Shown: positions 5,637-59,486 of the stretch, piece after piece
Layout: every line of letters starts with the position of its first letter
How positions within the stretch are numbered: the stretch's first letter is position 1
Source: Leptonemataceae bacterium
Lineage (GTDB): Bacteria > Spirochaetota > Leptospiria > Leptospirales > Leptonemataceae
Length of the DNA: 64,000 nucleotides
Direction: 5' to 3'
Assembly (NCBI GenBank): GCA_965227295.1
Contig: OZ245742.1
Coordinates: 160,001 to 224,000 of the forward strand
Translations under genes and position numbers: made by a program
Notes under the pieces: model-generated
Told to the model about the DNA's origin: nothing
Databases searched by the model: none
Seen by the model: only the letters and a program-made list of their open reading frames with translations

Positions 5637-7598
5637 TTAATAATGTAAACTCCCTTTGTAGTACAACGACCGGCTGAGCCGGGTGGCCCGCGGGTTGTCC
5701 GGGGCGATTTCCAGAACCTCTTCCAGAACAGCGCGGGCCTCGTAGTAGTCGCTGTTGAGCCGGTAGAGTTCGGCGAGGTTTAACAGATTCATAATGTGAC
5801 CGCGGTCCCGCAGGCGGCAACGCTCCCCGAAGTCGATGCCGCGCGACAACGGAACGTCGCCGTCGAGCAGATACGTGGCGCGCACGCCGAAGGCCGCGAT
5901 GTACAAATACTCCGTCTCCGACGGCACCAGCCAGGCCAGGGTTTCGTAGACCCGCGAAGAGTCTTTGATGCGCCGGTTCGCGCGATAGATGGTCGCCAGG
6001 TACGGATAGATTTCCGGATCGTCGTCCTTGAAGGCCAGGGCCTTTTCGAAGGCCTCGCAGGCGTCCGCGTATTTGCCGGCCTGGAAGTACTTCTTGCCCT
6101 TTTGTTTCAGATGAATGTATCCCGGCGGCGGCATGTGATAGTCGTCGGCCTCCTCCTGGCGATACGCCGCCCGCAGGATGCTGACGTCGTCGGCCAGCGT
6201 GCCCGTTTCCAGCGTTCGATCCAATATGCCGTTCAGATCGCCGCGCGCATCTTCCACCAGGCGCAGAAACAGCGCCTCGTCCTCGTTCATGGTGTCTTCT
6301 TCGCCGCTCTCACCGGGAGCGATGAGGATGTCCTGGCGCCCGTCGGAACCGATCAACAACACGTCCCGGGCCGCAAGTTGCAGGACATTGATTTGAAAGG
6401 GTTTGTTTAATCCGGCCATGCCCTGCATGCCGAGCTTCGGCATGATGTACTCATCGTCGCGGGCAAAGCGCGCCCGGCCGTCGCGATACAACACGACGCG
6501 CGGATGCTCGGCGTTCACATAGTAGGCCACCCCGCGCTGTTCTTCGATGAGCCCGCAGACGACGGTGGCCGTCATGCTGCCGTCGAAGGATCGAAAGACG
6601 TCGTGCAATTGTTGAAAGCAATCCTGCAACCAGCGTTCCGGCGAACGAGCGGCGGCGGCGGCGCTGTGCTCCGAACGACTGAGAATGGACTTGAAAACCG
6701 TGCCGAGGACCAGAGCTCCGCCGGCCCCCTGCATGGACTTGCCCATGGCGTCACCGTTGATGAAGGCCGTGTAGTCACGGTTCTGCAAACGAATGCGCTG
6801 GGCCGCGGAGAGATCGCCGCCGAGTTCCACATCCCAGCGTCGAAAGCGGAAGGCCTTCATCTGTCGGGTAACAACCTCGATCTTTAAGTGCGGGCTCGCC
6901 ACGTCGCTACCGGTCAGCGGTTCAATGAGGCGGCTCGTGAGAAAGTAGTCCCCGTCCTGTCGACTCTTCAGGATGTTCAACTGGCGCACGGTGGCGGCGA
7001 GTATGCGCGTCTTGCGATTGCTTTCGATGGTTTGCCGCAGCAGACGATCCCGATAGAAGACCGCCGCCACACTGAATACGATCACACCGATCAACGACGG
7101 CACGATAGCCTGGGATTCGTACTCGCCGGCAATGAACAGGGCGCACGACAGTGCAAAGATGACCGCCAGATTCAACAGGGCGACGCGCGGCTGCATGTGA
7201 ACGAGCATCGCAAACGAGAAGATCAACAGCACCAGGACGTACGGTGTGCCGGTGGCGGGGTTCAGAAACAGCAGGACGAGCTGACAGACGATGAGGGAGT
7301 ATCCCGCCACGAGAAAGGCCGGGAGAACCCAGCGACGCAGGCCGCGCCGGGAAAGACCGACGGCAACAAACAGTACGAAACAAACGGCGAAGACGGTCAG
7401 ATCGCCGAGGACGAAGTAGTTCCGAATCTGCGCGCCGGCGCTCGCCCCGACCAAAAAGTAATCCAGCACGGCAAAGGCCGGCATGATCAAGCAGAGCATG
7501 GTCACCACGAAGGGCATGAGTCGCAGGTTCTGGCGCCGGTACTCCACCGCCAGTTCCCGTTGCGCCCGCGAGCGTCGGCCTGCGAACAAACTTTTCAT
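5637..7598 (-). CDS. membrane SpoIIE/PP2C serine phosphatase with C-terminal TPRs
   Basis: N-terminal TM helices; QDGDYFLTSRL, LGGDL, GDAMGKSMQGAGGAL, GSDG and DDVSIL motifs; TPR-like tail. Confidence 0.92.
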   Translation of the reverse strand: MKSLFAGRRSRAQRELAVEYRRQNLRLMPFVVTMLCLIMPAFAVLDYFLVGASAGAQIRNYFVLGDLTVFAVCFVLFVAVGLSRRGLRRWVLPAFLVAGYSLIVCQLVLLFLNPATGTPYVLVLLIFSFAMLVHMQPRVALLNLAVIFALSCALFIAGEYESQAIVPSLIGVIVFSVAAVFYRDRLLRQTIESNRKTRILAATVRQLNILKSRQDGDYFLTSRLIEPLTGSDVASPHLKIEVVTRQMKAFRFRRWDVELGGDLSAAQRIRLQNRDYTAFINGDAMGKSMQGAGGALVLGTVFKSILSRSEHSAAAAARSPERWLQDCFQQLHDVFRSFDGSMTATVVCGLIEEQRGVAYYVNAEHPRVVLYRDGRARFARDDEYIMPKLGMQGMAGLNKPFQINVLQLAARDVLLIGSDGRQDILIAPGESGEEDTMNEDEALFLRLVEDARGDLNGILDRTLETGTLADDVSILRAAYRQEEADDYHMPPPGYIHLKQKGKKYFQAGKYADACEAFEKALAFKDDDPEIYPYLATIYRANRRIKDSSRVYETLAWLVPSETEYLYIAAFGVRATYLLDGDVPLSRGIDFGERCRLRDRGHIMNLLNLAELYRLNSDYYEARAVLEEVLEIAPDNPRATRLSRSLYYKGSLHY

Positions 7599-15866: not shown

Positions 15867-17252
15867 ATGAACACCATCGCAGCAAAACCCTATCGATCCA
15901 TCAACCCCGCCACTGAAGAAGTGATCTCCGGGTACCCGCACATCGGCGCGGCCGAAGCCGCCGCGGCCGTAGAACGCGGTCACGCGGCCTTTGTGAAGTG
16001 GCGCGAAACAACTTTCGAACATCGTGCACAAATATTGCGCAAGGCGGCGGCCCTTCTAAAAGAAGACAAACGCAAGTTCGCCGAACTCATGGCCCGGGAG
16101 ATGGGCAAACCCCTGGCCGAGGGCGAAGGGGAAATCGAAAAATGCGCCTGGGCCTGCGAGCACTACGCCGAACACGCGGCACAGTATCTCTCCGAAGAAG
16201 ACGTGCAAACCGGGGCGGCGCATGCCTTCGTCAGTTATCAGCCCATCGGCCTCGTACTTGCGGTCATGCCCTGGAACTTTCCGTTCTGGCAGGTCTTTCG
16301 TTTCAGTGCGCCGGCGCTTATGGCGGGCAACGGCGCCATCCTCAAACACGCCGAAAACGTGCCCGGCTGCGCCCTGGCCGTAGAAGACGTGTTCATGCGG
16401 GCCGGTCTGCCGCAGCACTTATTTCAGAATCTCTTCGTCGACCATGCAGTCACGGCGAAGCTCATCGAACACAAACTTGTGCGCGCCGTAACCTTAACCG
16501 GCAGCGTTCGCGCCGGTCGCGCGGTGGCCGCGAAGGCGGGCGAACAGTTGAAGAAGAGCGTCCTGGAACTCGGCGGCAGCGACGCCTACGTCGTTCTGGG
16601 AGACGCGGACCTCGACCTGGCAGCACAGGTCTGCGCCGCCTCACGCATGATCAACGGCGGCCAGTCCTGCGTGGCGGCCAAGCGCTTCATCGTGGTCGAC
16701 GCCGTCTACGACGCATTTCTGAAAAAGTTTCTCGAAAGATTGCGCACTGTGAAGATGGGCGATCCGTTCACCGACGGTGTAACCCTGGGCCCCCAGGCCC
16801 GCGCGGATTTGCGCGACGATTTGCACGATCAGGTGCGACGCAGTGTGGACGCCGGAGCCGAAGTCGTACTCGGCGGCGAAATTCCGGACGGCCCCGGTTT
16901 TTATTATCCGCCGACGGTACTCACGAACGTCGCGCCCGGCAGCCCGGCGTACTCCGAGGAACTCTTCGGCCCGGTGGCGGCGGTGATTCGCGCGAAGGAC
17001 ACCGACGACGCCCTGCGCATCGCCAACGACAGCGACTACGGCCTCGGCGGCGCCATCTTCACGGCGGACGTCGAGCGCGGGGAACGCCTGGCCGCGGAAC
17101 GTTTCGACAGCGGCAACGTCGGCGTCAACGGCCAGGTACGCTCGGACCCGCGTCTGCCTTTCGGCGGCGTCAAGGACAGCGGCTACGGCCGGGAGCTCTC
17201 GCACTTCGGCATCCGCGAATTCGTCAACATCAAAACGGTGTTGCGCTCGTAA
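15867..17252 (+). CDS. NAD(P)-dependent succinate-semialdehyde dehydrogenase (Sad/GabD-type ALDH)
   Basis: SINPATE, MPWNFPFWQ, TLTGS, VLELGGSD, GQSCVAAKRF, EELFGPV and PFGGVKDSGYGRE motifs. Confidence 0.93.
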   Translation: MNTIAAKPYRSINPATEEVISGYPHIGAAEAAAAVERGHAAFVKWRETTFEHRAQILRKAAALLKEDKRKFAELMAREMGKPLAEGEGEIEKCAWACEHYAEHAAQYLSEEDVQTGAAHAFVSYQPIGLVLAVMPWNFPFWQVFRFSAPALMAGNGAILKHAENVPGCALAVEDVFMRAGLPQHLFQNLFVDHAVTAKLIEHKLVRAVTLTGSVRAGRAVAAKAGEQLKKSVLELGGSDAYVVLGDADLDLAAQVCAASRMINGGQSCVAAKRFIVVDAVYDAFLKKFLERLRTVKMGDPFTDGVTLGPQARADLRDDLHDQVRRSVDAGAEVVLGGEIPDGPGFYYPPTVLTNVAPGSPAYSEELFGPVAAVIRAKDTDDALRIANDSDYGLGGAIFTADVERGERLAAERFDSGNVGVNGQVRSDPRLPFGGVKDSGYGRELSHFGIREFVNIKTVLRS

Positions 17253-17282
17253 CATTTCGTAAAAAGCACTTAACGGGAGATC

Positions 17283-19070
17283 ATTATTCTCGAAATCGCA
17301 TTCGTTCTCGTACTGATCGTCGCCTTCTTGCTGGTGCTGGCCTTCGAAAAGCTCCGGCCGGACACGGCCGCGCTCTGCGTCATGGCGGCGCTCATGCTCG
17401 GCGGCGTCGTCGACCCCGGCGAAGCCGTGCAGGGATTCGCCAACAAGGCCACGCTCACCGTGGGCGCCATGTTCGTTTTGAGCGCCGGTCTCTTAAAGTC
17501 AGGTGCGCTGAACTTTGTGGCGGACAGCCTCGGCCACGTCTTTGATCGCAATTTCTGGGCCGGCCTCATTGCCATGATGTTTCTCATCGGCGCCGTGTCG
17601 GGTTTCATCAACAATACCGCTGCCGTGGCCATCTTCCTGCCGTTGATCCTGCGTGCCGCCCGCCGTGCGGAGGTCTCCGCTTCGAAGGTGCTTATGCCGC
17701 TATCGTTCGCCTCGATGTTCGGCGGGGTCTGCACGTTGATCGGCACGTCCACGAACATCCTGGTGAGTTCCATCGCCGCGGAGCGCGGCCTGGAACCCTT
17801 CGGCATGTTCGAGTTCGCGCCCCTGGGCGTGTTGATCTTCGCCGCCGGCCTGCCGTACATGCTGTTCGCGGCCGCGCGCCTGATTCCCGAACGCGAAGCA
17901 GGCCGGGAAAACTTAACCGGTGATTTTCAGATGGCGAACTATCTCACCGACGTCCGCGTTCTCCAGGATGCGGGCTGGGCCGGCAAGGCCATGCGGGAGT
18001 CACCCTTCTGCGACGGCACCGACGACGACATCGAGATCCTGGCCGTTTATCGCGAAGACGAAGTACTGAAGAATCTCAGCGGAGATACGATCCTCAAGGT
18101 CGGCGACGTGCTCCGCATTCGCAGCGACGTCGAGCGCATCCGCGACCTACAACGTTCCCGCGGCGTGCTGGTTCTCGCTTCCGGCGGATTCCAGGACAAG
18201 GACCTGAACACCGATGAGGCCGTCCTGCTGGAAGCCGTGATCGCGCCGAACTCGCCGATCTCCGGCAAGACACTAAAAAAAACACGGCTGCTCAAAAATT
18301 ATGGCGCTTCGATTCTCGCCATCGGCCGACGCGGTCGCATCTTACACGAGCGCCTGGACGAGGTGGAACTCGGCCCCGGGAACACCCTGCTCCTTCAGAT
18401 ACCGCCGGAGCAACGCGAAGATCTCACGAACGATCCGGCATTCGTGATGGCCTCCGAGGTACCGGAGCCCGAGGAACGTCCGGCAAAGATCTGGCCGTCG
18501 GTGTTGATCGTCGCGTCCGTGGTGACCCTGGCTGCGGCGGGTGTCTTTTCGATTCTAACAGCCAGCATCGCCGGCGCCGTGCTGATGATTCTTACCGGCT
18601 GCCTGCGCGCCGAGGAGGCCTACGAGGCCATCGACTGGCAGGTCATCTTTTTGCTCGCAGGTGTGCTCAGTCTCGGCGTCGCCCTGGAAACCACCGGCGG
18701 TGCGGAACTGCTCGCCGACGGCATTGCGAAGTACCTGGGACCGCTCGGTCCCGCGTTTATTGTATCGGCGATCTTTCTCGTAACGTTCCTGTTGACGAAC
18801 GTCATTTCCAACAACGCCTCGGCCGCGCTCTTTGCCCCCGTCGCGATTACCCTGGCCGAATCCCTGAACGTCGACCCGCGCCCGCTGCTCATGGCAGTGA
18901 CCTTCGCCGCGTCGCTGTCGTTCATGACGCCCATCGGCTACCAGACGAACACCTTCATTTACGGGCCGGGTCGTTATAAATTCGGCGACTTCTTTCGCGT
19001 GGGTACCCCGCTGAACTTTATTCTGTGGGTCATCGCATCGGTGATGATTCCGGTGATCTGGCCGTTTTAA
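17283..19070 (+). CDS. SLC13/CitMHS-type permease with TrkA-C domains
   Basis: SGFINNTAAV, GGVCTLIGTSTNI, ISNNASA and TPIGYQTN motifs with two central TrkA-C-like domains. Start uncertain: ATT at 17283/17286 after GGGAG, or TTG at 17328. Confidence 0.9.
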   Translation: MILEIAFVLVLIVAFLLVLAFEKLRPDTAALCVMAALMLGGVVDPGEAVQGFANKATLTVGAMFVLSAGLLKSGALNFVADSLGHVFDRNFWAGLIAMMFLIGAVSGFINNTAAVAIFLPLILRAARRAEVSASKVLMPLSFASMFGGVCTLIGTSTNILVSSIAAERGLEPFGMFEFAPLGVLIFAAGLPYMLFAAARLIPEREAGRENLTGDFQMANYLTDVRVLQDAGWAGKAMRESPFCDGTDDDIEILAVYREDEVLKNLSGDTILKVGDVLRIRSDVERIRDLQRSRGVLVLASGGFQDKDLNTDEAVLLEAVIAPNSPISGKTLKKTRLLKNYGASILAIGRRGRILHERLDEVELGPGNTLLLQIPPEQREDLTNDPAFVMASEVPEPEERPAKIWPSVLIVASVVTLAAAGVFSILTASIAGAVLMILTGCLRAEEAYEAIDWQVIFLLAGVLSLGVALETTGGAELLADGIAKYLGPLGPAFIVSAIFLVTFLLTNVISNNASAALFAPVAITLAESLNVDPRPLLMAVTFAASLSFMTPIGYQTNTFIYGPGRYKFGDFFRVGTPLNFILWVIASVMIPVIWPF

Positions 19071-19187
19071 GGATCTTGTCGAGCCTTCGAAAAAAAGCAC
19101 CGCTGTCCCTTGCAACCTGCTGTGGACCAAAAAAAATCTCTAGACACGCCCCCCTTCAAATCGTCCCATATCCATCCGAGGTCTCTT

Positions 19188-19346
19188 ATGAATCCGAATC
19201 ATGCCGAAGAACTGACCAACCTTGCACCGAACGCGGACATTGCTCCGGACGCTCTGGCGCGCGTGGTCGACGAAGTGCGCGCTGAAGCGCAAATCAGCCC
19301 CGACCGCTACCTGAACGAAACGATCGTTCCGGAAGGCGGCGAGTAA
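19188..19346 (+). CDS. Pup-like small protein modifier (52 aa, C-terminal GGE)
   Basis: GAGGT RBS then ATG 19188; MNPNHAEELTNLAPNADIAPDALARVVDEVRAEAQISPDRYLNETIVPEGGE*; acidic, ends in GGE, and lies 11 nt upstream of a PafA-family gene. Confidence 0.8.
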   Translation: MNPNHAEELTNLAPNADIAPDALARVVDEVRAEAQISPDRYLNETIVPEGGE

Positions 19347-19357
19347 GTCGCTTCTCC

Positions 19358-21235
19358 GTGGTCGCATCCCGGCTGTTCGGCCAGGAGACGGAGTATGCCA
19401 TCCGTTTCTCGGCTCCGGCCGGGTCTGAGTCCGCGGAGCGCCCCGATCATTCCCTCATCTTCCACGCCTTTCGTGCGGCCGTAAAAAAGTTCGTCCGCAT
19501 CCGCCCCGGCGAGTGGTCGTTCTTCAAAGAATCCTTCTTCGTCGAGAACGGCGGCGCCTTTAACTACGAATCCCAGCCCTATGCCCCCGAGGCCGGCCTC
19601 ATCGAGGGGGCCACACCGGAATGCCGTTCGCCCCTGGAGTGCCTCGTCTACCAGCGCGCCCAGGAGCAACTGCTCCTCCGGGCCATCCCCGAGGCCGAGG
19701 CCTATTTACGACGCAAGGGTTTTCCGGGTTCCCTCGGCCTCCTGAAAAATTGCCGCGACGCCGAAGGCCACATCTACGGCGCCCAGGAAAACTACGGAAC
19801 GGACATTGCCTCGGGCCTGCGTCTCTGGCTGTATCGGATGGGGCTCGTGTTGTGCCTGCCGCTGCTGTTGTTCTGGTGGGTCCTGTATATGGGCTGCCTT
19901 ACGCTCGTCGTTACGCTGTCGCTGTTGGTACAGTTCTGTCTCTGGCTCGGCTATAGTTTGCTGCACGGCTTCTTAAGTTTTCCCGCCTGGATGTTACGCA
20001 GCGCATTCTTGCAAAAACGCGTAGACGATCTTACGGCCTTCAAGGATCGGCTGGCCGCGCGCTGGTCCATGTTCTCCGAGAGTACCGAGTTTCATCGGCT
20101 CATCGCCCGCCTGGAGTATACGATCTTCTTTCCGCCGACGCTGATTATCCTCTGGCCGTACACGCTGCTGCTGCGTCTGTGCGCCTTCGTACCCCAGCGC
20201 CGCCAGTTGACGGCGTTTTTCGCGTCCCGGGTAATCTTCACCGGCGCCGGCACGTTGCTGGAAGCCGGAGCAGATGCCGGTGGCGGCGTATTTGCCCTTT
20301 CGGAAAAGGGCACCGCCGTAAAACGCATGAATCGAATCACCATCGGTCCCGAGGACCGGCCGCTCTTCGACAACGGCAATCTGCACAAGGCCTTCATGCT
20401 GGCCGGACTGAGCACGCTGGTGTTGCGACCGGCTTCGTTCCTGGGACTCTTCACGCGCCGGTCACGTTTTCAAATCGGTATGGCCGACTCCAACCGCGCC
20501 CAGTTTGCCGAGTATTTGAAGTTCGGGACGAGCCTGTTGGTCCTGGACGCCTTCGAGGCCGGCTACTTAAAAGATGCGCCGCGCCTGCGCCGGCCGGTAC
20601 GCTCCCTGCGTGAGCTCGTCCACGATTGCAGCCTGAGCACGAGCGTGCCCGTACATCGCCTTACAACGACGGACGGCGAACGCAAACGCAACGCAAACGC
20701 CCTGGAGCTCCAGCGCTGGTACCTGGAACGCGTGCGGCAGTATCTACACGACCGCGACGCCGACGAGGGCGCGGCGTCCATTACACCGGAGCGAGTGGAG
20801 GAACGCGAGATTTTCCGGCTATGGTCGGAATGCCTGGATCTCTTAACTGACGATCCGGGAAAGTTAATCGGCCGACTGGATTGGGTTACGAAACGTTATC
20901 TCATCGAAGCCGCCGGACGCGACCTGGCCTTCTCCGCGCAGAAGAAGATCGACCTGGGCTACCACGAACTCGGCGGCGCCTATTTCGATCGCCTGGAAGC
21001 CGAGGGCATTGCACCGAAGCTCGCCCCGGACGATGCCGTGAGCACGGCCGTATTCCAGCCCTCGTCGCCGGAGCGGGTCCAGCTCCGCTCGCGTCTGATT
21101 CGGGACAGCAGTTACGGCGGGCGACGCATTACCGTATCCTGGAACCGTGTACGCATCGGCGACTGGTGGGACCGTAAGATCATCTCTCTTGATGTTTACC
21201 GCAATCAAAAGAACAAGGGCGACGGGCATCCATGA
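19358..21235 (+). CDS. PafA/PafA2-family Pup ligase with transmembrane insertion
   Basis: PafA motifs in the expected order: RLFGQETEY, NGG, IEGATPEC, KNCRDAEGHIYGAQENY, FFASRVIFTGAG, IGMADSN...LKFGT, ALELQ, LDWVTK, IDLGYHEL, RSRLI, VSWNRV. Confidence 0.88.
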   Translation: MVASRLFGQETEYAIRFSAPAGSESAERPDHSLIFHAFRAAVKKFVRIRPGEWSFFKESFFVENGGAFNYESQPYAPEAGLIEGATPECRSPLECLVYQRAQEQLLLRAIPEAEAYLRRKGFPGSLGLLKNCRDAEGHIYGAQENYGTDIASGLRLWLYRMGLVLCLPLLLFWWVLYMGCLTLVVTLSLLVQFCLWLGYSLLHGFLSFPAWMLRSAFLQKRVDDLTAFKDRLAARWSMFSESTEFHRLIARLEYTIFFPPTLIILWPYTLLLRLCAFVPQRRQLTAFFASRVIFTGAGTLLEAGADAGGGVFALSEKGTAVKRMNRITIGPEDRPLFDNGNLHKAFMLAGLSTLVLRPASFLGLFTRRSRFQIGMADSNRAQFAEYLKFGTSLLVLDAFEAGYLKDAPRLRRPVRSLRELVHDCSLSTSVPVHRLTTTDGERKRNANALELQRWYLERVRQYLHDRDADEGAASITPERVEEREIFRLWSECLDLLTDDPGKLIGRLDWVTKRYLIEAAGRDLAFSAQKKIDLGYHELGGAYFDRLEAEGIAPKLAPDDAVSTAVFQPSSPERVQLRSRLIRDSSYGGRRITVSWNRVRIGDWWDRKIISLDVYRNQKNKGDGHP

Positions 21236-21609
21236 GATTGAGCCGAACGGCGTTTGTAATCTTTCTGGGCCTGTGTTGCGGCGGCTGTTACTCCGCATCC
21301 TTCCGTCCGGCGGACGATTATCCGAACCTGCGACGGATAGACGTGCAACCAGGCGACGTCGTGCTCGTCTACGAGCGCCCGGAACGATCTTTCGTAATTC
21401 TCGGTGGTATGGAAGTTCGTGACGTCGACAGTTTGCGCGATCCGGATTTTCAGGAGTTCGTCCGGGCGGAAGCGGCCCGCCGCGGCAGTACGGGTGCCTG
21501 GGTTCTCAGCAACAGCGCGCGCACCGCGGCCCATGCGACGTTCGGTGAGTGGTTCAACCCGGGCGGCGGCATCGGCATCGTACGCGTGTTGTTGTTTCAC
21601 TTTGAGTAG
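21232..21609 (+). CDS. putative lipoprotein
   Basis: ATGA overlap with the ligase stop; MRLSRTAFVIFLGLCCGGC signal peptide with Cys candidates for lipidation. Confidence 0.7.
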   Translation: MRLSRTAFVIFLGLCCGGCYSASFRPADDYPNLRRIDVQPGDVVLVYERPERSFVILGGMEVRDVDSLRDPDFQEFVRAEAARRGSTGAWVLSNSARTAAHATFGEWFNPGGGIGIVRVLLFHFE

Positions 21610-21628
21610 CGTGAGCGTAGTTTTTTAC

Positions 21629-21960
21629 ATGTTGCTGCGCAAAGAAGACCAGGACGGCATTGCGCGTTTTTGCGATCAGATCGCCGGCGCGGTTTGCACT
21701 GCTTTGTTACTCCGACAGATGGAGGAGGAACGTCGCACGGCGGACCGCCTGCTGCTGAACGTGCTGCCGGAGGCGGTGGCCGCGGAACTTAAAGAACACG
21801 GCCGGGTCGAACCGCAAACCTACGGAACCGCGTCGGTTCTGTTCACGGACTTCAAGGGTTTCACCGCGGCTACGACGTCCGGGGCTACGACGTCCGGGGC
21901 GACGCCGTTAACGTCGCCACGCGCATGGAATCCAACAGCGATCCGCAGCGAGGTGCAGGA
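21629..21960 (+). pseudogene. internally deleted adenylate/guanylate cyclase remnant
   Basis: ADRLLLNVLPEAVAAELK...VLFTDFKGFT is joined, in another frame, directly to YDVRG-YDVRG-DAVNVATRMES; the central catalytic region is missing. Confidence 0.75.
21871..21900 (+). repeat. 15-bp tandem duplication TACGACGTCCGGGGC x2
   Basis: Exact direct repeat at 21871-21885 and 21886-21900, at the deletion junction. Confidence 0.95.
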
Positions 21961-21961
21961 A

Positions 21962-23482
21962 TCACGCCAGCTCTCCCTTCTTGACCTTGCCGTTCGGTGT
22001 TCGCGGCAAGGCATCGAGGAACGTCAGTACTCGCGGACACTTATAATCCGCTAAGTTGTTTCGCGCAAACTCTAAGACTTCCACCTCGAAGCGCGCTCGA
22101 TCCGTCGCATCCAACTGCCCGGTCGTTCGCCCGCTTCGCGCCGCATCACTCAACACCACGAACGCGCCGATCATCCGCAAATCCCGCACCTGAACCTCGC
22201 GCACGGCAACCTCGGCAATCAAATCGCAGCCCGCCAGCGCGCGCTCGACTTCCAGCGGCGACACGCGATAGCCGAAGGCGTTCATAACATCGTCGGCGCG
22301 GCCGTCATAATGAACGTAGCCGTCGGCGTCGATGCTCGCGCGATCGCCGCCGCAAAACCATTCGCCGTTTCGCAGCGGCAATTCCGGCGCCTGGTCCGGG
22401 CCGCGCCAGTAGCCGAGCATGAGCCCGGGATCGTCCCGGTGCACGGCGAGCAGGCCCGCCCCGGATTCGTCCGCCGCCTGAATCGTTACACGTCGGCCGG
22501 GCTGCGGCCGCCCCGGAAGCCCCGGCCGTACCGGCACCGCGGGGCCGCTGGAAATGTACGTGGAGATCTCGCTCATACCCAGGGCCTCGTAGAGTTCGCG
22601 CCCGGTAGCCTCTTTCCAGGCCGCATACAATTCCGGCGACAACGCCTCGCCGGCCGTAAGGCCGTGGCGCAGCTGCGAGTCACGCACTAACGTTAAGTCA
22701 CCGTACTTTAGTATGCGTCGATACAACGACGGCACCGCGGCGAAGAGGCTCGCCCCCTGTTCCTGGATCAATCGCGGCCAGACGCCCGGTTCGATCCAAC
22801 CGCGCACGAGCACGGCCGCAGCCCCCGCGGCCCAGGGATCCATCAACCCGACGCCGAGGCTGTAGGTCCAGTTGAGTTGCCCCGCATGGAGCAGGCGATC
22901 CTCCGGCCGCAGATCAATCCAACCGGGACCCGCGATCGGGCGGCGCCCGAGGATACTGCGATGCGCGTGCAGGACGCCCTTTGGTTCGCCGGTGGTCCCG
23001 CTGGTGTAAATCAAGAACGCCGGATCGTCCGCATGCGTTTCCGCGAACGATGCGCCCGGCCTCGATTCTTTAAGTTCTGAAAATGTTACATTAACATCCG
23101 AAGCACGCTTCGGCAACGGCAATCCGGGATCGCCGCACACGAGCGCCGGCCGGGCATGCTCGATCAAGAAGCGTACTTCCGGCGCGCTCAGTTGCGGCGA
23201 AACGGGAACCGGCACCAACCCCGCGGCGACGGCTCCGAAGAACGCGAAGGCGAATTCCGGCCCGTGTTCCAGGCGCACCAGCAATCGTTCCCCGCGCCCC
23301 AGCCTGCGCAGGCCCGCGGCGACCGCCAGTACCTCCGCGCGCACTTCGGCAAAACTCCACTCCCGCACCGACAACGTTCCGCTCGCCGCGACGTCGACAA
23401 ACACGAGCGCCGTATCGTCGTCCCGACGCAGGCCGTCTCGTTCCGCAAGGCAATGGGCCGCAAGATTCAACAGGCCGGACAT
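21962..23482 (-). CDS. acyl-CoA synthetase (AMP-binding enzyme)
   Basis: YTSGTTGEPKG, TAGEAL, GMSE, GRADD, VSPLEVE and LPRTPNGKV motifs. Confidence 0.93.
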   Translation of the reverse strand: MSGLLNLAAHCLAERDGLRRDDDTALVFVDVAASGTLSVREWSFAEVRAEVLAVAAGLRRLGRGERLLVRLEHGPEFAFAFFGAVAAGLVPVPVSPQLSAPEVRFLIEHARPALVCGDPGLPLPKRASDVNVTFSELKESRPGASFAETHADDPAFLIYTSGTTGEPKGVLHAHRSILGRRPIAGPGWIDLRPEDRLLHAGQLNWTYSLGVGLMDPWAAGAAAVLVRGWIEPGVWPRLIQEQGASLFAAVPSLYRRILKYGDLTLVRDSQLRHGLTAGEALSPELYAAWKEATGRELYEALGMSEISTYISSGPAVPVRPGLPGRPQPGRRVTIQAADESGAGLLAVHRDDPGLMLGYWRGPDQAPELPLRNGEWFCGGDRASIDADGYVHYDGRADDVMNAFGYRVSPLEVERALAGCDLIAEVAVREVQVRDLRMIGAFVVLSDAARSGRTTGQLDATDRARFEVEVLEFARNNLADYKCPRVLTFLDALPRTPNGKVKKGELA

Positions 23483-23580: not shown

Positions 23581-25596
23581 ATGACGGTCCCCCGCGATGC
23601 GCTGAACGATCATCGCCTGTTCTTTACGGCGCAACCGTTGTTCGAGAACATCGCGCCGCGCAGTGCGGCCTTCCGCAAGTTTCTCGATCAGGTGGAGCTC
23701 GTGCTCTACGCCCGCTCCGAGGAAATCTACGAACCAGGCACGCAATCGGATTATCTCTACCTGGTCCGGGACGGCGAGGTGCACATCGTTTATGGCCAGG
23801 GAAACGGACCGGCACGCACCATCGGCATTCATGGTCGGGGCAGCATCTTCGGCGAGGTCAGCTTTCTCACGCGCGAACCGCATTCATCCTTCGCCGTCGC
23901 CACCCTGGACTCCCACATCTATCGCATCCCCGGGGAAGCCTTCGTCGAACTCATGACCGCCGAGGCCGGCGTCGGACGGGTTATGACTTCCATGTTGTCG
24001 CGCCGATTGCGGCGTTCGCTGTACGAAGAGAGCCACGCGCATCCGGCTTCGATTCATGCGTTGTTTTACCCGGAAGATCCGGAGCGCGGCAGTGAGGTCT
24101 GCGCGGCGCTGGGCGAAGCGTTGGTCCTGGAAAACCCCGGGCCGGTGTTGATCCTTACGTTGAACCCGGCCTCAATGTTCGCCCATCATGAAAACGTAAA
24201 CGGTCTTTCACGCATCTTAGAAAAGTGGCCGGCCGTTCGCATCGAAGAGATGCTCGGTTACATGGATCATCCGGCCGGCTTCGATCTGCTCGTCGCCAAC
24301 GAGGTCTACGGCATGGAGCTGAACCTCGATCGTGTGGTGCAGCTCATGCCGGATTTCCTCGGACGCCTGCGCAAGTACTACGCCACCATCCTGGTGGACG
24401 CCGGCGGTCTCGTCGAGAACCCGGTGCTCTCCCGCGTGCTCTCACAGAGCGACTACGTAATGTTCGTGCGAAACCCCCACGGGGAAAACGATTCCCGCGC
24501 GGGCCGACGCTTTCGTGAAGTCATCGCCTACTGCACGGAGCTAATGGATGATTTTTTCGAACGCGCCATCATTATCTCCGACGAATGCGAGGAGCGCCAC
24601 GGCGGCGCACCGGCGGACTGGCGCGGCTGGAATCCGAACTCGGCCCTGTACAAACGGCACATGCGATTGTCGTGCGTGAGCGGGGGGCCGGCCCATCGCA
24701 TCGAAGAACGCGCATTTCAGATCGGCATCAATCGAATCGCGCGCAAGCTCTCGGGAACCTCGCGCGGCCTCGTCCTCGGCGGCGGCGGGGCGCGGGCCTT
24801 CGCTCACATCGGCGTTATGGAAGTTCTCGACCGCGAAGGCATCGACTTCGACGCGGTGACCGGAACTTCCATGGGTGCGGTCATCGGCTGCGGCTACGCG
24901 ATGGGCCGGGACGCCTCGGAGCTGGCGTACCTCGTGAAACAGATCATCCCGGACTCCGACGCGATCCTCGATAAACGTTTGCCGCTCGTAAGTTTCTTTC
25001 GCGGCAAGAAACTGAACAAGGCGATTCTTTCCGCCTTCGGCAACACGCGCTTCGAAGACCTGGAGATTCCGTTCTACTGCAACGCCGCCGATCTCAACAC
25101 GGCCCAGAGCGTCATCTTCGAACAGGGCTTCGTCTCCACGGCCATTCGCGCTTCGGTCAGTCTGCCCGGCATCTTTCCACCGATGAAACTCGGGCCCTAC
25201 GACCTGGTGGACGGCGGCGTCCTGAATAATCTGCCGGGGGACATCTTACGCGATAAGGGCTTCAACCGCATCATCGGTGTGAACGTTACCCCGCTCGAGG
25301 ACCACCGTTCCTCGGACACCCAGGTGGAAGATCGCCCCGGCGGTCTGTTTCAAAAGATCAAAGACTATTTCAGCCTGCCCCCGATACTGAAAATCATTTA
25401 CCGTTCCACCACGATCCAGGGCATCGAGTTACTCAAGCTGCGTCTGGACGACTTCGATTACCTGTTTCACCCGGACATTGCGCCGTGGGACATCTTCGAT
25501 TTTCACCGGCGCGACGAGATCATCGAAGCCGGTCGCCGCGCGGCTTTGGATAGCCTTCAGGAAATCAAGGACACGTTGTACCGACCGCGGATGTAG
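23581..25596 (+). CDS. cNMP-binding domain / patatin-like phospholipase (NTE-like)
   Basis: N-terminal cNMP domain (FGEVSFL...PHS); [17 protein letters not shown] and DGG patatin motifs. Confidence 0.92.
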
Positions 25597-49219: not shown

Positions 49220-49482
49220 GAAGAGTTTATGTCCCTTTCCCGCGCACGGATGCAACAAAAATACGTCAAAACGCGTCAAATTCACCGTAGACCCCGTTTG
49301 GCGGGGATATCCACGAAATAATCCTTGCTTTTCCTCTGGTTTTTCGCGGAAAATTCCCGGAGAGCCGCAGAAATTTGACACGTTGTGTTGATTCCGTCGC
49401 TTATATCACCGATACAAATTCTGAAGCGGCGAAAATACGCCGTTCGTGAGCGAAACCTCGTCTGAATAAGAAGGTGCAGATA

Positions 49483-50400
49483 ATGAAACAACTGACGTTC
49501 CTGATTTTAAGTCTGATCGTGACCGCCCCCCTGATGGCCCAGGGCGGCCAGGGACCGCAGGGAACCGGCCAGCAGAACTATACGAACCCGGCCAACCCGA
49601 CTCCGTACGAAGCGACCCCCGGTGAACTGGTCTCTGAAGAAGTAGACCTGAACCAGCTGACCCCCGAGCAAAAAGTCATCCGCGACCGTAACTTACGCGC
49701 GGAAGAACTCTGGAAAAACGCGGACTACCGCGATTACAACAAGGCGTTCGCCGAACTGCATCAGCTTTCGCGTGCGTTCGCCAACAACAAGTATCGCCTG
49801 GCCCTGTCGGCCTACCAGTCCGGCGTAAACACGATCATCAAAATGCGCGACGAAGTGGAACTGTTCCGCAAGCAGTCGTCCGAAGCGAAGTACCTCAACG
49901 AAAAGTGGTACTGGCAGATCGTAGACCGGAAAGCGCGTGAAGAGCGGCAAATCAACCGCAAGAAGCGCACGGCGAAACTCGAAGCGGTGACCTACTTTAC
50001 CCGGGCCATCAACCACCTCGACGAAATCCGGAACCCGGACCTTCGCGAAAAGCCGGCCTTCAAGCGCCTGCTCTCCGCGGTCTACCGGAACTGGGTGATG
50101 TATCAGTTCGACCTGGGCAACCTGCCGCAGTGCATCCCGATCCTCGAACTCTACATCGAGATCGACGAGAACGAGAAGGAGTATCCGGCGCACAAGTATC
50201 TGGCGCAGTGCTACGCCTTCCAGGAAATGATGATCAAGAAGTACGGCGTGGGCACCGAAGACCAGATGTTCCGCTTCCGTTACAAGAAGAACGTGCATTT
50301 ACTCCGTGCGGCCGAACTGAAATACGGTAAGGAATCCGCCGAATACAAGCACGTTGTGAACCTGGTGAACCGCGACGAGATCATCTCGGTCCAACCGTAA
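49483..50400 (+). CDS. fcpA: flagellar coiling protein A
   Basis: Signal peptide then motifs recalled from Leptospira Fcp[80 protein letters not shown]. Confidence 0.92.
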
Positions 50401-50535: not shown

Positions 50536-53500
50536 TTACAGGGAAGAAACCCGGTCCGAGGTCTCACCGCTCAAGTACCGTTTTCCGGTAAGGACCCCCG
50601 TATTGATGAGAACATCCGGGGCGTAGGTGAACAGCGATTGCACGAACCGCTGCTGCAAACTCGGGCGCAGTATCACGGCCTCGACGAACTCATTTCCGTG
50701 CACGGCGACGGTGCGCGCCACGTCCCTGGCAGCCGGCACGAACGCATGCGCCTGGACTGCGTCGTCAGCGATACGAACACCGCCCACCCCCGAAGCTCCT
50801 GCCGTCGCCGGCCCTTTTTGAAACTTACGCAGGGTAACGAGACCCAACGCCGCACCGATCCCGGCATCGATGCCCACCAGCCCCCAGTCCACGCTTCCGT
50901 TCTCCACCTGTTGGGTGATGGCGGAACGAGAGAAAGATTCCACCGCGGCGCCGGCTACGCTGGTAATTTGATGCAGAGTCGCCTGGCTTAACTTTACGCC
51001 GGCCTGCGCGGCCCGACTGGAGAGCAGCGCGGCCTTCGTTGCGCCGGCCACAAAACCGCCGAAGACTCCGGACGCCGCCCCGATCCCGATGGAAATTCCG
51101 AACTGCGCCCAATCCCAGGCCGCTCCGGTAAGGACGACCTCGATTCCGTAAGCCAGACCGCTGATGACGACGCCGGTCGTCACACCGACGGCCACCGCGG
51201 AGGCGATGCTACTGGCCGCGACCGCCGCCGCAGCAGCGGAAGCCGCCGCGGCCGCCGAACTCGCGGCGGAAGCAATCACGCCCGCCAGGAACGGCAGAAA
51301 GAACAGGTTTCCGCCCGGGTCGGAGTACGACACGGGATTGTTGCCGGCAAAGGCATAACGATTGATCGACGCGGCGTGAACCGTGTTCGTGCCGAACGTC
51401 AGGGTGTCGGCCTGAAGAAAGCTGCCGATCGCAGGATCGTAGTAGCGCGCATGAAAGAAGTACATGTCCGCGTCGCGATCGTACTCGTTGTTGTTGAATT
51501 TCCCGCGGAAGATGTCGCGGCCGTCGCTCGATTCCTGATAGACTTCGCCGTACGGTTTATAAACGGTATGCGCGACCTCCTTGCCGTCGGCATCCGTAAC
51601 CAGGCTCGTGGAACCGACCTGGTTGTACTGGAAATAGAAGGTCCCTTCTTCCGGGTAACCGTAGCCGTTCCCCCCGGGCCCCAGGAGAAAGTTAAATTCA
51701 AAGAGCTCACTGCCCGGCGGCGCCAGCGGGAACAGGGGAACGTTCCCGGAACCGCTCGTGCCGCACTGAATGCTGAGCGACAGCACCGCCGTCGCGAGAA
51801 TCGGAGCCGGCCAGAGAATTCGGCGACGGCGCCGCTGGTACGACGACACGCGACGACCGGCGTAAAGGATTGCGGCGGTCAGGGAAGCGGCCACCGCCAG
51901 CGCCAGCAGGACCAGCAATCCGACGCGCGCCGTCGCGGGATCCCGAACATAGGCCATCGTCGTATGACTCAGAAAACCGCTCAGGCCACTGATGCTGCCC
52001 ATGTTGTACATCTGCGCCTGGAGAGCGTGGCCGGCACTCGTTCCGTGAATCAAGGCGACGGCGCTTGAATCCGTGGAAATGGCCGCAATGCGACCGCCGG
52101 GTCCCTGCACGTACTCCGTGCTGAGAATGTCGCCGCCCGCGAAGCGCGTCACTTCGAGTTCCCGGTTCACATAGATGGTTTCGTTGCCGTTGCCGTCGAG
52201 TTTTCGAACGCGATCACCGCCGGCATCATACTCGTAGCGTCCGGCCAGCATCCCGTTCCGGGCGACCTGCCGGATCTTGTAGCGACCATCGTAGTCGAGC
52301 TGATAGACGTTCCCGTCGCCGGTCCGGCGTTCGATCACGTTGCCGTGCCCGTCGTACTCCAGGGCAAGGCCGTTGCTGCCGCTCACCGGCCGGCTGCCCT
52401 CGTAAGTTAAGGTGAGATCACCCTTACGGTTAAGGTTCCCCTCACTCGTGTACTCGTAAGTGATTTCTCCGTACGGACCGACCGCCCGCGTCAGATAACC
52501 GAAACCGTTGTAGGAGTACGAGGTATCGTTGTCACCGATGAGGTCTTCCACACCGGTCACCTGATGCATGGCGGTCCAGGTGTAGCGCTGGTCCAGCAGA
52601 TCGGCGGAATCGGAGTCCGTCGTATGGATGGACTGTACCCGGCCGACGACATCGTACGTGAAGTCCGTCGTTACGCCGTTGCCGTAAACGATCTGCCCCG
52701 GCTGAGCGCGCGCCGTATAGTTTGCATAGCGGGCGAAGACCGGCGCGTTGGAATCAGCGCAATCGTTCACGGCGACTTTGATTTCCGCGAGATCGCCGTT
52801 GTCGGCGTAGTCGTAGCAGGCGATCCGCCCGGAGGGGTACCGAACTTCCTGCGGCCGATCCAGGGGATCGTTGCGGTACTCCATGACATGCGTTCCACCG
52901 CTCCCGCCGTCGAGAATCAAACGCGTTACCGCCGGATTGCCGTTGGCATCGTAGGAATATTCGCGGCGGGATGTTTCGGAGCCGGAGGCGTTGCTCATGA
53001 CGGCGGCGGTCATCCGAAATTGCGCGTTCGTGAAGGCATCGTTGTCGTACTCGAATCGCGCGGAGCTGCCGTCGTGGTACGTGACGAGAGTCTTGCGGCC
53101 GAGGTCGTCGTGGGTGAAGCGTTTGTCTTCGCCGTTGTGTCGCTCAAGCTCAAGTAATCCGCGATGATCGTAATAGTAGTCCGTCGTCCCACGCTCGCTG
53201 TTCTGTACCCGGGTGCGGCGCCCCAGAGAGTCCCAGGTAATGTGGGTGTAATTCGAAGCGGCGTCGCTGACCGTCGTTAACCGGTCCAGCTCGTCCCGGA
53301 AGAATCGCTGGGCGATGCTCGTGTTCGTATCCAGGTCGGTCATGTAGATGACCTGGTCGACGCCTTTGAAGTTTCGACAGCGGGTAATCTGCAAACGCGA
53401 CGCGGCCACATTGTGATCTTCACGCAGTTCCGTGAACCGTTCGAGGCCGGGTTCACAGTAGCCCTGGTATCCCGGGCCGGCACCGTGGACGGTGCTGATC

Positions 53501-56500
53501 ACGGCTCCGCCCGGCACAATCACCCGGGCGGCGCGATGATAGGCGTCGTAATAGTAGTGCGTCCAATCCGGAGTCTCACCGCTCCGATGAACGGTGGACT
53601 CCTGCAAGACCTCGCCCCGTAAACCGTAGTACTTCAAACGAACGCGCAGGTCGCTGCCGGCACCGGTCTCACTGCGCACAACCCGCCCCAGGCCGTCAGC
53701 CACTTCCCGCCCCGAAGTCATCCCGGCATCGTCCCAGCTCTGCCGTACCTGCGAGACGGTCACATAGAAACTTCCGTCCCGGCCGTAGCTGCGCCCTTCG
53801 ACCTGCACGATACCATCCGGCCCGGTCCGATAGACGGCGACCGGGCGACCGAATCCGTCGTACTCAATGCGCCGGACATTGCCGTCAGCGTCCGTTTCTT
53901 CAGCGGGCCCGCCGTAGCGCGCGTCAAACTCCTGTCGCTGCGTGAAAGTCTTACCGGCGGCGAAGACCCGCTTGACCCACGGATACGTATGATACGTCGA
54001 CTCGTAGTTGATCAGTTCAACGGCGCCGGACGGCCGCTGGATCTGCGTACGGTTGCCGTAGGTATCGTAGTCATAGTGGCTGGTCAGCCAGTCGTTGCGG
54101 CTGCTGTCGAAGTCGTGCCGCCGAATGACGTTCCCCGCACTATCGTGATCCACGGTGAACTCGGTCATTCGATTCGAGCAGGCACATGCATCACCGGAAA
54201 GAGCGCAACCGGTTCCGACGACGGTTCCTGCCAGGGGTCCCGACCGCTGGTTGATGCTGTCGTTGGCGTAGTTCGAACATGTTTGCAGAGTCCGATTACC
54301 GTCGTTCTCGGTCAGCAGGGCGAGATTGCCGAGGCTGTCGTACTCAAAGTCCGTGGTGTTCGCAATGGAGCCGTCGTACATGTACTTGCGGACGACCTGT
54401 TGCACAAGCCTCGGTGCATAGGATCGAGCGGCAACTCCCGGAACCCAACCCCACTGGTGGTCCACGGAAGAGATCAACGCGCCTGCCGTATGTCGCGTGG
54501 TCTCACTCAGCGACCGACCCACCAGGGGAAAGACGACACTGTAGTCCGTCGTCGTCACGTTACGTTCACTCGGGGCAGTAGTCGTCAAACGCAGGAAGCC
54601 CTGAAAACCGCGGCCCCCCGTATGGAGCGTGGCACCACGATAATCATACGTGCGTTGGATCGTGTGCACCTCGGTGCCGTCCGGGCCGGCTGTCGGCACG
54701 CTCCGCGTATACGTATGCAGCACCGGCAGGGGCGAACTCAGGGCGCGGTGACCGGCCGGAAAATTCATGCCGCTGTTCGCATCGTACTCCGTCAGGCGGC
54801 GATAGCTGAACTCGTGCGTAAGGCTGCCCTGTAAAATCGTTGCGACGGTGTCGTTGGGTTTCGCCTGAGCAACCGGGGAGCTGAAATATATGCGAAAGCT
54901 GGATGAGGTGTCGTTGTCCCAGCTGCTGTGCTCCTGGCGAATAAAGTCCGAACGCCCGTCGCCGTCGAAGTCCCCGGGAATCAGAAAGGCCCCCGGGTCC
55001 GCCCGGAGGTCCCACTGATAGATCCGCCCCTGCGGCTCCAGATAATCGAAGGTCCCGTCCCCGTGCGAAACATAGACCGCAAAGTTTTCGGTCCCTCCGT
55101 CGTCCCAGGCGCCTTTGGTCTGCCGCATAAAGTCCGTGCGGCCGTCGCCGTTGTAGTCCAGGGGAATGATGTTGGCTCCGTTGTCGAAGCGCAGTTTGTC
55201 CTGGTAGATGCTCCCCGGGGGCGAAACGATGTGAAAGTAACCGTTCCCGATGGAAAAGTATACGTTGAACGTATCGAGGTTATCGTCGTCGAGGCGGCCC
55301 TTTTCCTGGCGAATGAAGTCCGTCTTGCCGTCGCCGTTAAAGTCACCCGGAATGATGTTAGCGCCCTCGTCAAAGCGCAGCCAGGCCTGGTACTGAAGAC
55401 CCTCGGGACGGACTTTCTCGAAGGTTCCGTCCCCCTTCGAGAAATACACCTCGAAGGTTCCCACGTTATCATTGCCCCAGACGTTGTGCTCCTGGCGGAT
55501 GAAGTCGGTCATCCCGTCGCCGTTGTAATCGCCGGGGATAATGATCGCGCCGTGGTCCGCCCGCAGGTTGTCCTGATACATTACGCCGGAAGGTGTCCGA
55601 ATGTCGAAGTAGCCGTTCCCCAGCGAGAAGTAGACGTTGAAGGTGTTCGAGTTATCGTTATCCCAGCTGCCTTTTTCCTGGCGGATAAAATCGGTCATGC
55701 CGTCGCCGTTATAATCGCCGGTAATGATATTCGCGCCGGGATTGAAGCGCAGCCATTTCTGATACCGGGTGCCGGCCGGTTCGACGACCGTAAAGTACCC
55801 GTCGCCGTTTGAGAAATAAACCTGAAAGGTACCGCTGTCGTTGCTGCCCCAACTGCCTTTTTCCTGGCGAAGAAAGTCCGTCTTGCCGTCGCCGTTGAAG
55901 TCGCCCGTGATGATGTTCGCACCCGGATCCAGCCGCAGAAGATGTTGGTACGGATCGTTCTTAGCCCCCTGCACGCCCGGGACGACGATGTCGAAATAAC
56001 CGTCTCCCCGGGAGAAATACACCATGAACGTGTCCGTACGGTCCCCGCCCCAACTGCCTTTTTCCTGACGAATGAAGTCCGTCTTGCCGTCGCCGTTGAA
56101 GTCACCCGGGATAAGCTTCGCGCCCGGATCGTAACGAAGGCTCCCCTGATAGGCGGTGCCCCCGGGCATAACCATTCGAAAGCCGCCGTCTAACGATTGC
56201 TGATCGTTCCAGGTGATTTCAATCGGATCGAGGCAGCGCGTCCCATCGCACTCCTCCACGGTTGCTAACTGTGAACGGCCGGAAGTTACTCCGACCCCGT
56301 AATAAAGAAAGTACTGCTTGTATACGCCGTCTGCTGTCGCGCTACGCACGGACTTCAATCGAAAACGCATGCGCGCTTCCCCGGTACCGTCAAAAAAGAT
56401 CACGTGATCCTTCGGCGAACTTACGGCGTCGTACTCGAGGGCCACGTGGCGATTCGGATAAACGATACGCAGTAGCCGGGCCATGCCGCCGGCCTGGTCG

Positions 56501-57198: not shown

Positions 57199-57298
57199 GG
57201 ATGCAGGACCTCGCATAGTGTGGCGAGACCCTCGGTCCAGGAACGGGAAACTCAAACGGAATCGGGAAGGGAATACGGAGATTTCGACAAAGACTCTC

Positions 57299-59473: not shown

Positions 59474-59486
59474 AAAAACCTCCGGT

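Follow-up and report, generated by a model that had tools for sequence, protein, structure and literature searches.

On the forward strand of contig OZ245742.1 of a Leptonemataceae bacterium (assembly GCA_965227295.1), a gene for a 52-amino-acid (aa) acidic protein ending in Gly-Gly-Glu lies directly before a gene for a 625-aa enzyme of the Pup_ligase family, and the two probably constitute a Pup-like conjugation module that acts independently of a proteasome. The window, i.e., the whole stretch of DNA that was analyzed, is 64,000 nucleotides (nt) long, and all coordinates given here are counted from its first letter. Pupylation, in which the small protein Pup is attached to targets by the ligase PafA, has to our knowledge been demonstrated experimentally only in Actinobacteria, where it serves mainly to supply the proteasome. 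The features of the pair are as follows.

19178 to 19181, + strand: Shine-Dalgarno-like GAGG, assigned by its match to the consensus, 6 nt 5' of the ATG of the small gene
19188 to 19346, + strand: small acidic open reading frame (ORF) of 52 aa, with its ATG at 19188, its TAA at 19344-19346 and the C-terminus ...ETIVPEGGE
19358 to 21235, + strand: Pup_ligase-family enzyme of 625 aa with a GTG start, from a clade with a hydrophobic insertion
19799 to 20188, + strand: hydrophobic insertion of ~130 aa, predicted to be helical, within the enzyme (residues ~148-277), adjoining the QENY strand-4 motif on its C-terminal side

The TAA codon of the small ORF is separated from the GTG codon of the ligase gene by 11 nt. 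An earlier, sequence-only reading of this DNA had proposed an acidic GGE-ending ORF with a ribosome-binding site, an 11-nt gap and a 625-aa gene, and both the coordinates and the sequence are as it described. A promoter and terminator scan of positions 17000-22500 gave counts near those of shuffled controls and no feature that defines a transcript.

The small gene and its pairing with the ligase-family gene

The small protein carries a net charge of -8, contains no lysine and terminates in VPEGGE. Its gene is present in a single copy in the window's genome. An alignment of 46 small proteins from this family (A2) revealed a variable N-terminal region of ~20 residues, followed by a conserved C-terminal region of ~30 residues with the motif L..[VA][VL]..[IV][RA].D[AS]...[PA]..[YF]L.[ED][TS].VP.GGE. 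Family members are typically 45-66 aa in length when read from the first ATG, with one locus truncated by a contig end. The amino acid motif is kept across phyla although the DNA differs.

The profile derived from this alignment retrieved 826 cluster representatives (E ≤ 0.001) from 1.84 billion proteins. Among the 150 best of these, 147 end in GGE, three in DGE and none in Gln; counted from the C-terminus, Glu at -1 and Gly at -2 are present in all 150 and Gly at -3 in 147, which makes these the most conserved residues of the family, although this tally is not independent of the profile, because the sequences were chosen by the profile itself. The sequence-only reading had expected the small gene to be missed by annotation. 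Gene callers do call it, and its homologs are labeled 'hypothetical protein' in public records. The clusters nearest to it in the protein atlas are likewise unnamed 'hypothetical protein' entries and have no Pfam family.

The association between the two genes was assessed in 80 loci from named public genomes, which were fetched with a ligase alignment; the single ligase sequence, used as a query, had found no relative. Every one of the 80 loci has, just 5' of the ligase gene, the end of a + strand frame whose last residue is Glu (78 GGE, one DGE and one EGE), and no locus has a small ORF ending in Gln. The control for this observation consisted of the stop-to-stop frames with a length of 35 aa or more, 10,197 in all, in the six reading frames of the same loci. 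Only 80 of these frames end in GGE, of which 78 are the upstream ORF and two lie elsewhere. A census of the Leptospirales gave the same picture, in that the ligase and the small gene are held by the identical 15 of 156 genomes, in a single copy each and adjoining one another. The upstream ORF was also present in all 11 order-level loci that were read, several of which are the same records as among the 80 loci. The pairing of the genes is thus far beyond chance, and the presence of a conserved GGE-type ORF upstream of ligase homologs, on which the sequence-only reading depended, is borne out in 80/80 loci (as a Glu-ending ORF) and in 15/15 ligase-bearing genomes of the order. The view that only the ligase gene is real and the small ORF is open by chance, for which the lack of a match of the ORF to any curated family might speak, can be dismissed as refuted by the comparative data: the 80/80 synteny against two other GGE frames in 10,197, the 826 profile matches, the perfect co-occurrence in 156 genomes and the cross-phylum amino acid motif.

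No conserved third gene emerged when all ORFs of at least 70 aa from the 80 loci and the window were clustered. The largest further neighbor cluster comprised eight of the 81 loci (BLASTP, E < 1e-6), and genes for proteins with multiple transmembrane (TM) segments lie beside the pair in some loci and are missing there in many others.

The enzyme and its hydrophobic insertion

The 625-aa protein matched the Pfam family Pup_ligase (PF03136) with 216.4 bits (cut-off 25; E 9.7e-64) over residues 5-598, which correspond to positions 1-440 of the 441 in the profile. When PF03136 was used to scan the whole genome of 5.94 Mb, the same protein was again matched, as the sole family member. A set of 586 ligase homologs was found at E ≤ 0.001, and those in metagenome-assembled genomes (MAGs) of Leptospiraceae already carry the name 'PafA2 family protein' in public records. 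The equivalog models of NCBIfam were not reached, with 155.4 bits for PafA (TIGR03686; cut-off 551.3) and 131.8 bits for Dop (TIGR03688; cut-off 492.3). By these sequence cut-offs the enzyme is neither PafA nor Dop. The sequence-only reading had called it a PafA-family ligase, which is correct for the Pup_ligase family as a whole and does not extend to PafA proper.

An AlphaFold2 (AF2) model of the enzyme was built on an alignment of 105 homologs and has a predicted local distance difference test (pLDDT) score of 95.0 and a predicted template modeling (pTM) score of 0.93. Foldseek comparison of this model with solved structures retrieved Dop (5lrt; E 1.4e-26, target TM-score 0.81) and the PafA-Pup complex (4bjr; E 8.1e-26, target TM-score 0.76), whereas the GCS2-type ligases 1tt4 and 1r8g were matched far more weakly (E 4e-4 to 3e-3). 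The protein as modeled has the glutamine synthetase (GS)-type fold of the PafA/Dop kind. The Pup_ligase and GS-fold match anticipated from the sequence is thus confirmed, both by PF03136 and by the structural comparison to Dop and PafA.

The motifs of the family, as set out in passages of Iyer, Burroughs and Aravind (Iyer et al., 2008; PMC2588565), comprise GhExE in strand 1, [HQ]x[NH] in strand 4 and [QH]x4D in strand 6, together with a pair of arginines and acidic residues in strands 2 and 3. Each has a counterpart in the enzyme. The GhExE motif is G8-Q-E10-T-E12, the strand-4 motif is Q143-E144-N145 and the strand-6 motif is Q372...D377, while E71, E83 and E88 are the acidic residues of strands 2 and 3, and R326, R334 and R370 are conserved arginines. 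G8, E10, E12, E71, E83, E88, Q143, E144 and Q372 are invariant in 105/105 sequences. All residues of the family motifs are invariant or at least 90% conserved among the 105 sequences, except N145, which was taken from the window sequence and the QENYE consensus rather than from conservation in that set.

Correspondences with PafA and Dop residues were drawn from hidden Markov model (HMM) alignments and not from structural superposition. In these alignments the PafA alpha-loop stretch HVWEGVSSATTRS faces a clade-specific DRxxFDxGNLxK, so that the alpha-loop signature of PafA is missing. The region is nevertheless strongly conserved within the clade, including R334, D338, G340 and K344. At the diagnostic positions numbered 13-15 in Table 1 of PMC7947786 the enzyme reads A-T-P, a mixture of the PafA pattern, A-T-A, and the Dop pattern, which is S-T-P or S-A-P. 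The closest ligase homologs (loci L002 and L003 and relatives P0004-P0008) contain an extra insert, variable and acidic, of up to ~80 aa after the first strand (ETEYAIRFS...). This insert occupies the position of the Dop-loop of Dop, and the window protein holds only a short version of it.

The larger insertion, of ~130 aa, has no counterpart in Dop or PafA: residues 148-277 of the enzyme stand opposite residues 159-166 of Dop (4b0r). It ranges from 100 to 177 aa in the 105 homologs, with a median of 114 aa. Two or three hydrophobic 19-mers lie within the insertion in 98/105 homologs, and none lies outside it in 91/105. Column-wise hydropathy and charge across the sequences delineated two nearly charge-free stretches, at ~161-200 and ~254-277, joined by a polar linker of variable length and bracketed by conserved Arg/Lys residues at 160 and 278-282. 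In the AF2 model this region consists of helices at residues 153-213, 216-240, 243-275 and 278-290, in blocks with a pLDDT of at least 92. The insertion is predicted from these sequence properties to be a membrane anchor, with a predicted two to four membrane passes and necessarily an even number of them; the two halves of the catalytic domain would have to lie in the cytoplasm.

Genome context and distribution

The window's genome is 5.94 Mb in length, consists of one contig and is 93.55% complete. A search of this genome for a 20S proteasome found none, the sole PF00227 match being HslV (TIGR03692 at the same place, 276 bits, cut-off 158). Mpa was likewise not found in the genome, where the best AAA match scored 144 bits against a cut-off of 505, and the single Pup_ligase gene is not accompanied in the genome by a second copy of the PafA/Dop family. 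The absence of proteasome, Mpa and Dop partners is likely, not certain, because the genome is 93.55% complete. In five other carrier genomes, PF00227 matches numbered zero in three and one in two.

The titles of the records from which the 80 loci were drawn name at least seven phylum-level groups, among them Leptospirales, Planctomycetota, Myxococcota, Acidobacteriota, Verrucomicrobiota, Bdellovibrionota-type lineages (Oligoflexus, Pseudobacteriovorax), Uabimicrobium and others. The nearest ligase homologs, with 48-53% identity, are in records titled as Leptospirales or Leptospiraceae MAGs. Within the Leptospirales the module is limited to one of two families, with 14 carriers among 41 further genomes, versus none among 114 in the other family. 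In a sample of 401 genomes from the phylum, a match over the cut-off was present only in the window's genome and one other. A divergent pair, with 30-32% identity and ...KVEAGGE as its tail, is present in three loci from Leptospiraceae-labeled MAGs (L052, L060 and L074). FastTree was used to make a rough, midpoint-rooted ligase tree of the window and 79 loci (L033 was omitted since its ORF is cut), whose support values were not inspected. In it these three sequences group with that of Uabimicrobium, away from the group of the window. At most, the tree hints at patchy inheritance or transfer of the module.

The other features of the window include genes close to the pair and several at a distance from it. 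The upstream flank of the pair is a CitMHS/TrkA_C permease gene.

5637 to 7598 and 57299 to 59695, - strand: two SpoIIE/PP2C-type phosphatase proteins, one with TPR repeats and the other with a 7TMR-DISM seven-helix sensor domain
21232 to 21609, + strand: 125-aa gene overlapping the ligase stop codon by 4 nt (ATGA), with an N-terminus that by eye resembles a lipoprotein signal
21404 to 22054, + strand: open frame of 216 aa without a Pfam match (E ≤ 0.001), situated between the gene for the lipoprotein-like protein and a convergent acyl-CoA synthetase gene
23581 to 25596, + strand: 671-aa protein with a cyclic-nucleotide-binding domain and a patatin-like phospholipase domain
49474 to 50400, + strand: FcpA flagellar coiling protein (NCBIfam NF047448, flagella_FcpA, 507.8 bits, cut-off 400)
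50536 to 57720, - strand: 2394-aa ORF that combines an SpvB domain with FG-GAP and RHS repeats

The 125-aa gene had no Pfam or NCBIfam family. Its product is 43% identical (E 3e-33) to that of an ORF in the same position in L002, the closest relative examined, and in L003 an ORF with a similar N-terminus follows the ligase gene. It is not a conserved neighbor across the 80 loci. It is a clade-specific neighbor outside the conserved core, which in its clade could form a third member of the operon. In the 216-aa frame, the later part looks by eye like the beginning of a nucleotide cyclase domain and contains a short direct repeat, TSGATTSGAT; from its sequence the frame may be a gene remnant. 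The domain composition of the 2394-aa ORF is like that of Tc-toxin B/C-like or Rhs-type polymorphic toxin proteins. The presence of fcpA in the window, which the sequence-only reading had used to place the host, was confirmed by the FcpA match.

A membrane-linked conjugation module and its relation to known systems

A two-gene, Pup-like tagging module is the best available reading of this locus, because the enzyme has the ligase fold and its homologs are preceded by a GGE-ending ORF, and we regard it as probable. The sequence-only reading had reached the same interpretation, although it had overlooked the ~130-aa insertion, the absent proteasome, Mpa and second family copy, and a published prediction of 2008 that is discussed below. 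In the proposed mechanism, the 52-aa acidic protein would be the modifier. The enzyme would use ATP to phosphorylate the gamma-carboxylate of its C-terminal Glu, and the activated carboxylate would then be coupled to an amine. The most likely acceptor would be the epsilon-amino group of Lys in proteins that reside at or within the inner membrane. The helical hydrophobic insertion that follows core strand 4 would keep the enzyme at the membrane. A deamidase would be unnecessary, since the modifier already ends in Glu when it is synthesized. The tag would serve as a regulatory or localizing mark rather than as a degradation signal, because the genome appears to have no 20S proteasome, Mpa or second family member, and its removal, if any, would be carried out by the same enzyme. 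The module would thus represent a membrane-linked, non-degradative variant of pupylation, as the hydrophobic insertion and the missing proteasome and Mpa suggest.

Several observations weigh against this interpretation. The first group concerns the small protein, which matched no Pfam or NCBIfam model, including those for Pup. None of the 46 family members matched Pfam Pup (PF05639) at E ≤ 10 or any of the NCBIfam models that bear the name Pup or UBact, and a PF05639 scan of the window's genome at E ≤ 10 did not include the small gene among its matches. When the A2 profile was searched against the PDB, chains bearing Pup were not retrieved at E ≤ 10. The second group concerns the enzyme, which is slightly nearer to the hydrolase than to the ligase. 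A single-sequence search against solved structures gave E 5e-27 for Dop and 1.3e-22 for PafA, and the 105-sequence profile gave 3.9e-60 and 4.6e-52, respectively. When the family profile was aligned to 4b0t, Glu71 in the family segment lyYEalp came to face the catalytic Asp of PafA (LYLDVGSHP), and the His residues of the strand-4 and strand-6 motifs of PafA and Dop are replaced by Gln (HEN to QEN and Hx4D to Qx4D). Because of these Asp to Glu and His to Gln changes, the chemistry of the enzyme could differ in detail from that of PafA and Dop. The topology of the insertion also calls for caution, in that AF2 renders residues 153-213 as a single continuous helix of 61 residues, and hydropathy indicates two to three segments compared with the four TM segments reported in 2008. 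Finally, a literature search with mostly open-access coverage found no experimental evidence for any member of the clade.

According to passages of Iyer et al. (2008; PMC2588565), the operational definition of Pup was a protein of 50-90 aa with a conserved C-terminal motif ending in G[EQ], encoded by a gene adjoining that of a Pup ligase, and homology of such small proteins with Pup was asserted from PSI-BLAST and HMM searches. The small protein agrees with this definition (52 aa, GGE end, 11 nt from the ligase gene), and homology to Pup is for this reason plausible, while sequence homology to canonical Pup was not reproduced in the HMM and profile searches described above. The term 'Pup-like modifier' of the sequence-only reading is therefore apt for the GGE end and the position beside the ligase gene, and is not matched by similarity to the Pup and UBact profiles. 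As a source of canonical Pup, a Pfam Pup scan of 251 genomes from the phylum of a verrucomicrobial carrier gave one match, which lay inside a 963-aa frame and was unusable.

Other explanations accept the enzyme and the peptide as real and differ on what is done with them. We consider it unlikely, though worth stating, that the same activation chemistry is directed at an amine-bearing lipid head group (e.g., phosphatidylethanolamine) or another small amine, so that the peptide itself becomes anchored in the membrane. The strand-4 motif, which lines the active site, is immediately followed by the insertion, the region at the target-binding alpha-loop of PafA is unlike both PafA and Dop and is conserved in the clade, and no conserved protein partner is encoded nearby. 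In addition, the superfamily members GCS2 and glutamine synthetase use small amines, as stated in passages of Iyer et al. (2008; PMC2588565). However, the nearest characterized relatives all act on protein lysines, and the 2008 prediction of membrane-protein targets accounts for the same data equally well. There is a slim chance that lipid attachment of this kind takes place, which would give bacteria a counterpart of Atg8/LC3 lipidation that rests on the glutamine synthetase fold and dispenses with an E1-E2-E3 cascade, or, in a milder form, that an undivided, ancestor-like enzyme would both attach and remove a tag on membrane proteins.

It is rather improbable that the small protein is a non-covalent partner (a regulator, substrate mimic or assembly factor) that is never ligated, with the enzyme being a membrane-bound gamma-glutamyl ligase for small molecules. 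The lack of a Pup-family match for the small protein would fit such a role, as would the resemblance of the fold to small-molecule ligases of the GCS2/YbdK type, although the latter is far weaker, and the enzyme is much nearer to Dop and PafA (E ~1e-26, target TM-score ~0.8) than to GCS2. This explanation also fails to account for the last three residues of the small protein being its most conserved; a free C-terminal Gly-Gly-Glu is a requirement of the known reaction and is otherwise hard to explain.

A mainly Dop-like hydrolase, i.e., a depupylase or deamidase, is very improbable. Sequence and profile scores that are slightly better for Dop than for PafA point in this direction, and so does a partial alignment of the planctomycete paralogs with the Dop-loop, according to passages of Hecht et al. 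(2020; PMC7947786). Nevertheless, there would be nothing to deamidate, because no family member ends in Gln (0/80 loci, 0/150 representatives). The enzyme cannot be only a remover, because it is the sole family member in the genome and no second one is present to make conjugates. After strand 1 the window protein also lacks the long Dop-loop-like insert of some relatives, and Hecht et al. argue in the same passages (PMC7947786) for an ancestral ligase whose hydrolase activity was promiscuous.

The conjugation module, which remains the probable reading, can be compared with several known systems. The actinobacterial PafA-Pup pair (4B0T, 4BJR) shares with it the GS-type fold, the GhExE and other motifs, and a small acidic partner with a Gly-Gly-Glu end, whose gene adjoins that of the enzyme. 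The two differ in that identity is ~18% in structural alignment and the score on the PafA equivalog is 155 versus 551 bits. Here there are a hydrophobic insertion of ~130 aa, Glu71 in place of the catalytic Asp (L-D-V-G-S in PafA) and no PafA alpha-loop signature, and the small protein is not recognized by Pup models. PafA works with Mpa/ARC and, in the majority of lineages, with the 20S proteasome and Dop, none of which was found in the window's genome. Canonical Pup has a bihelical core, and its extended tail of 6-7 residues is bound in the groove of the ligase.

UBact is a small Pup-like protein of some Gram-negative phyla, outside Actinobacteria, that has a terminal Glu or Gln and is encoded beside PafA/Dop homologs. 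UBact loci carry genes for Mpa and the proteasome, and UBact is not known to end in GGE.

Dop (4B0R, 5LRT) is the best match of the enzyme in both sequence and structure (E 5e-27 and 1.4e-26, respectively), whereas the small-protein family here includes no Gln-ending substrate and the enzyme falls below the Dop equivalog cut-off. A single-copy planctomycete paralog of PafA and Dop, with 29-31% identity to both, was used as an outgroup by Hecht et al. (2020; PMC7947786, available passages). Like the enzyme of the window it is single-copy and about equally distant from PafA and Dop, and the text passages of that paper do not discuss a membrane insertion, a partner peptide or lineages beyond the Planctomycetes.

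The closest precedent comes from Iyer, Burroughs and Aravind, who in 2008 predicted, in Plesiocystis and Rhodopirellula, a Pup beside a Pup ligase with TM segments inserted after strand 4; passages of the paper describe no linkage to the proteasome and propose pupylation of membrane-associated proteins as a means of regulation (Iyer et al., 2008; PMC2588565). The system of Plesiocystis pacifica and Rhodopirellula baltica and that of the window both consist of a single Pup_ligase gene, with hydrophobic segments immediately after core strand 4, and an adjacent small gene (50-90 aa with a G[EQ] end there), have no linkage to proteasome genes and would have the same role, the tagging of membrane-associated proteins. 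In those passages (PMC2588565) four TM segments and linkage to a membrane-protein gene are reported, whereas simple hydropathy gives two to three segments here and no neighbor family is conserved across the 80 loci. The host also differs, being a lineage of the Leptospirales. The homolog set of the present study includes Pirellulaceae MAGs and relatives of Plesiocystis (Enhygromyxa, Pseudenhygromyxa) with ~35-43% identity, the same insertion and the same upstream ORF.

The module is accordingly a further lineage, the Leptospirales, of a kind predicted 18 years ago and not a new kind. The novelty claimed in the sequence-only reading stands to the extent that the literature search, with its mostly open-access coverage, found no paper reporting the system in Leptospirales or any spirochaete, and that the terms 'pupylation' and 'UBact' are absent from the available text of PMC7203096; it is reduced by the 2008 prediction, the planctomycete outgroup of 2020 and the name 'PafA2 family protein' given to homologs in Leptospiraceae MAGs. 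What is added here is the breadth and strictness of the gene pairing, a Glu terminus that never varies, the context of a single enzyme with no proteasome, the active-site changes and a modifier that current models overlook. The reach of these findings for spirochaete biology is limited, with carriers in 15/156 genomes of the order and in one family only. The A2 profile would mend the annotation of the ~50-aa partner, which at present is a 'hypothetical protein' that Pup models overlook. If the proposed function is correct, the module would constitute a membrane-localized, non-degradative protein modification in Gram-negative bacteria and a living example of the undivided ancestral state of PafA and Dop. 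Compared with the actinobacterial system, the clade would then represent a second and far more widely scattered form of pupylation, in which one enzyme, held by a membrane anchor and independent of a proteasome, attaches a tag that is made ready for use with its GGE end.

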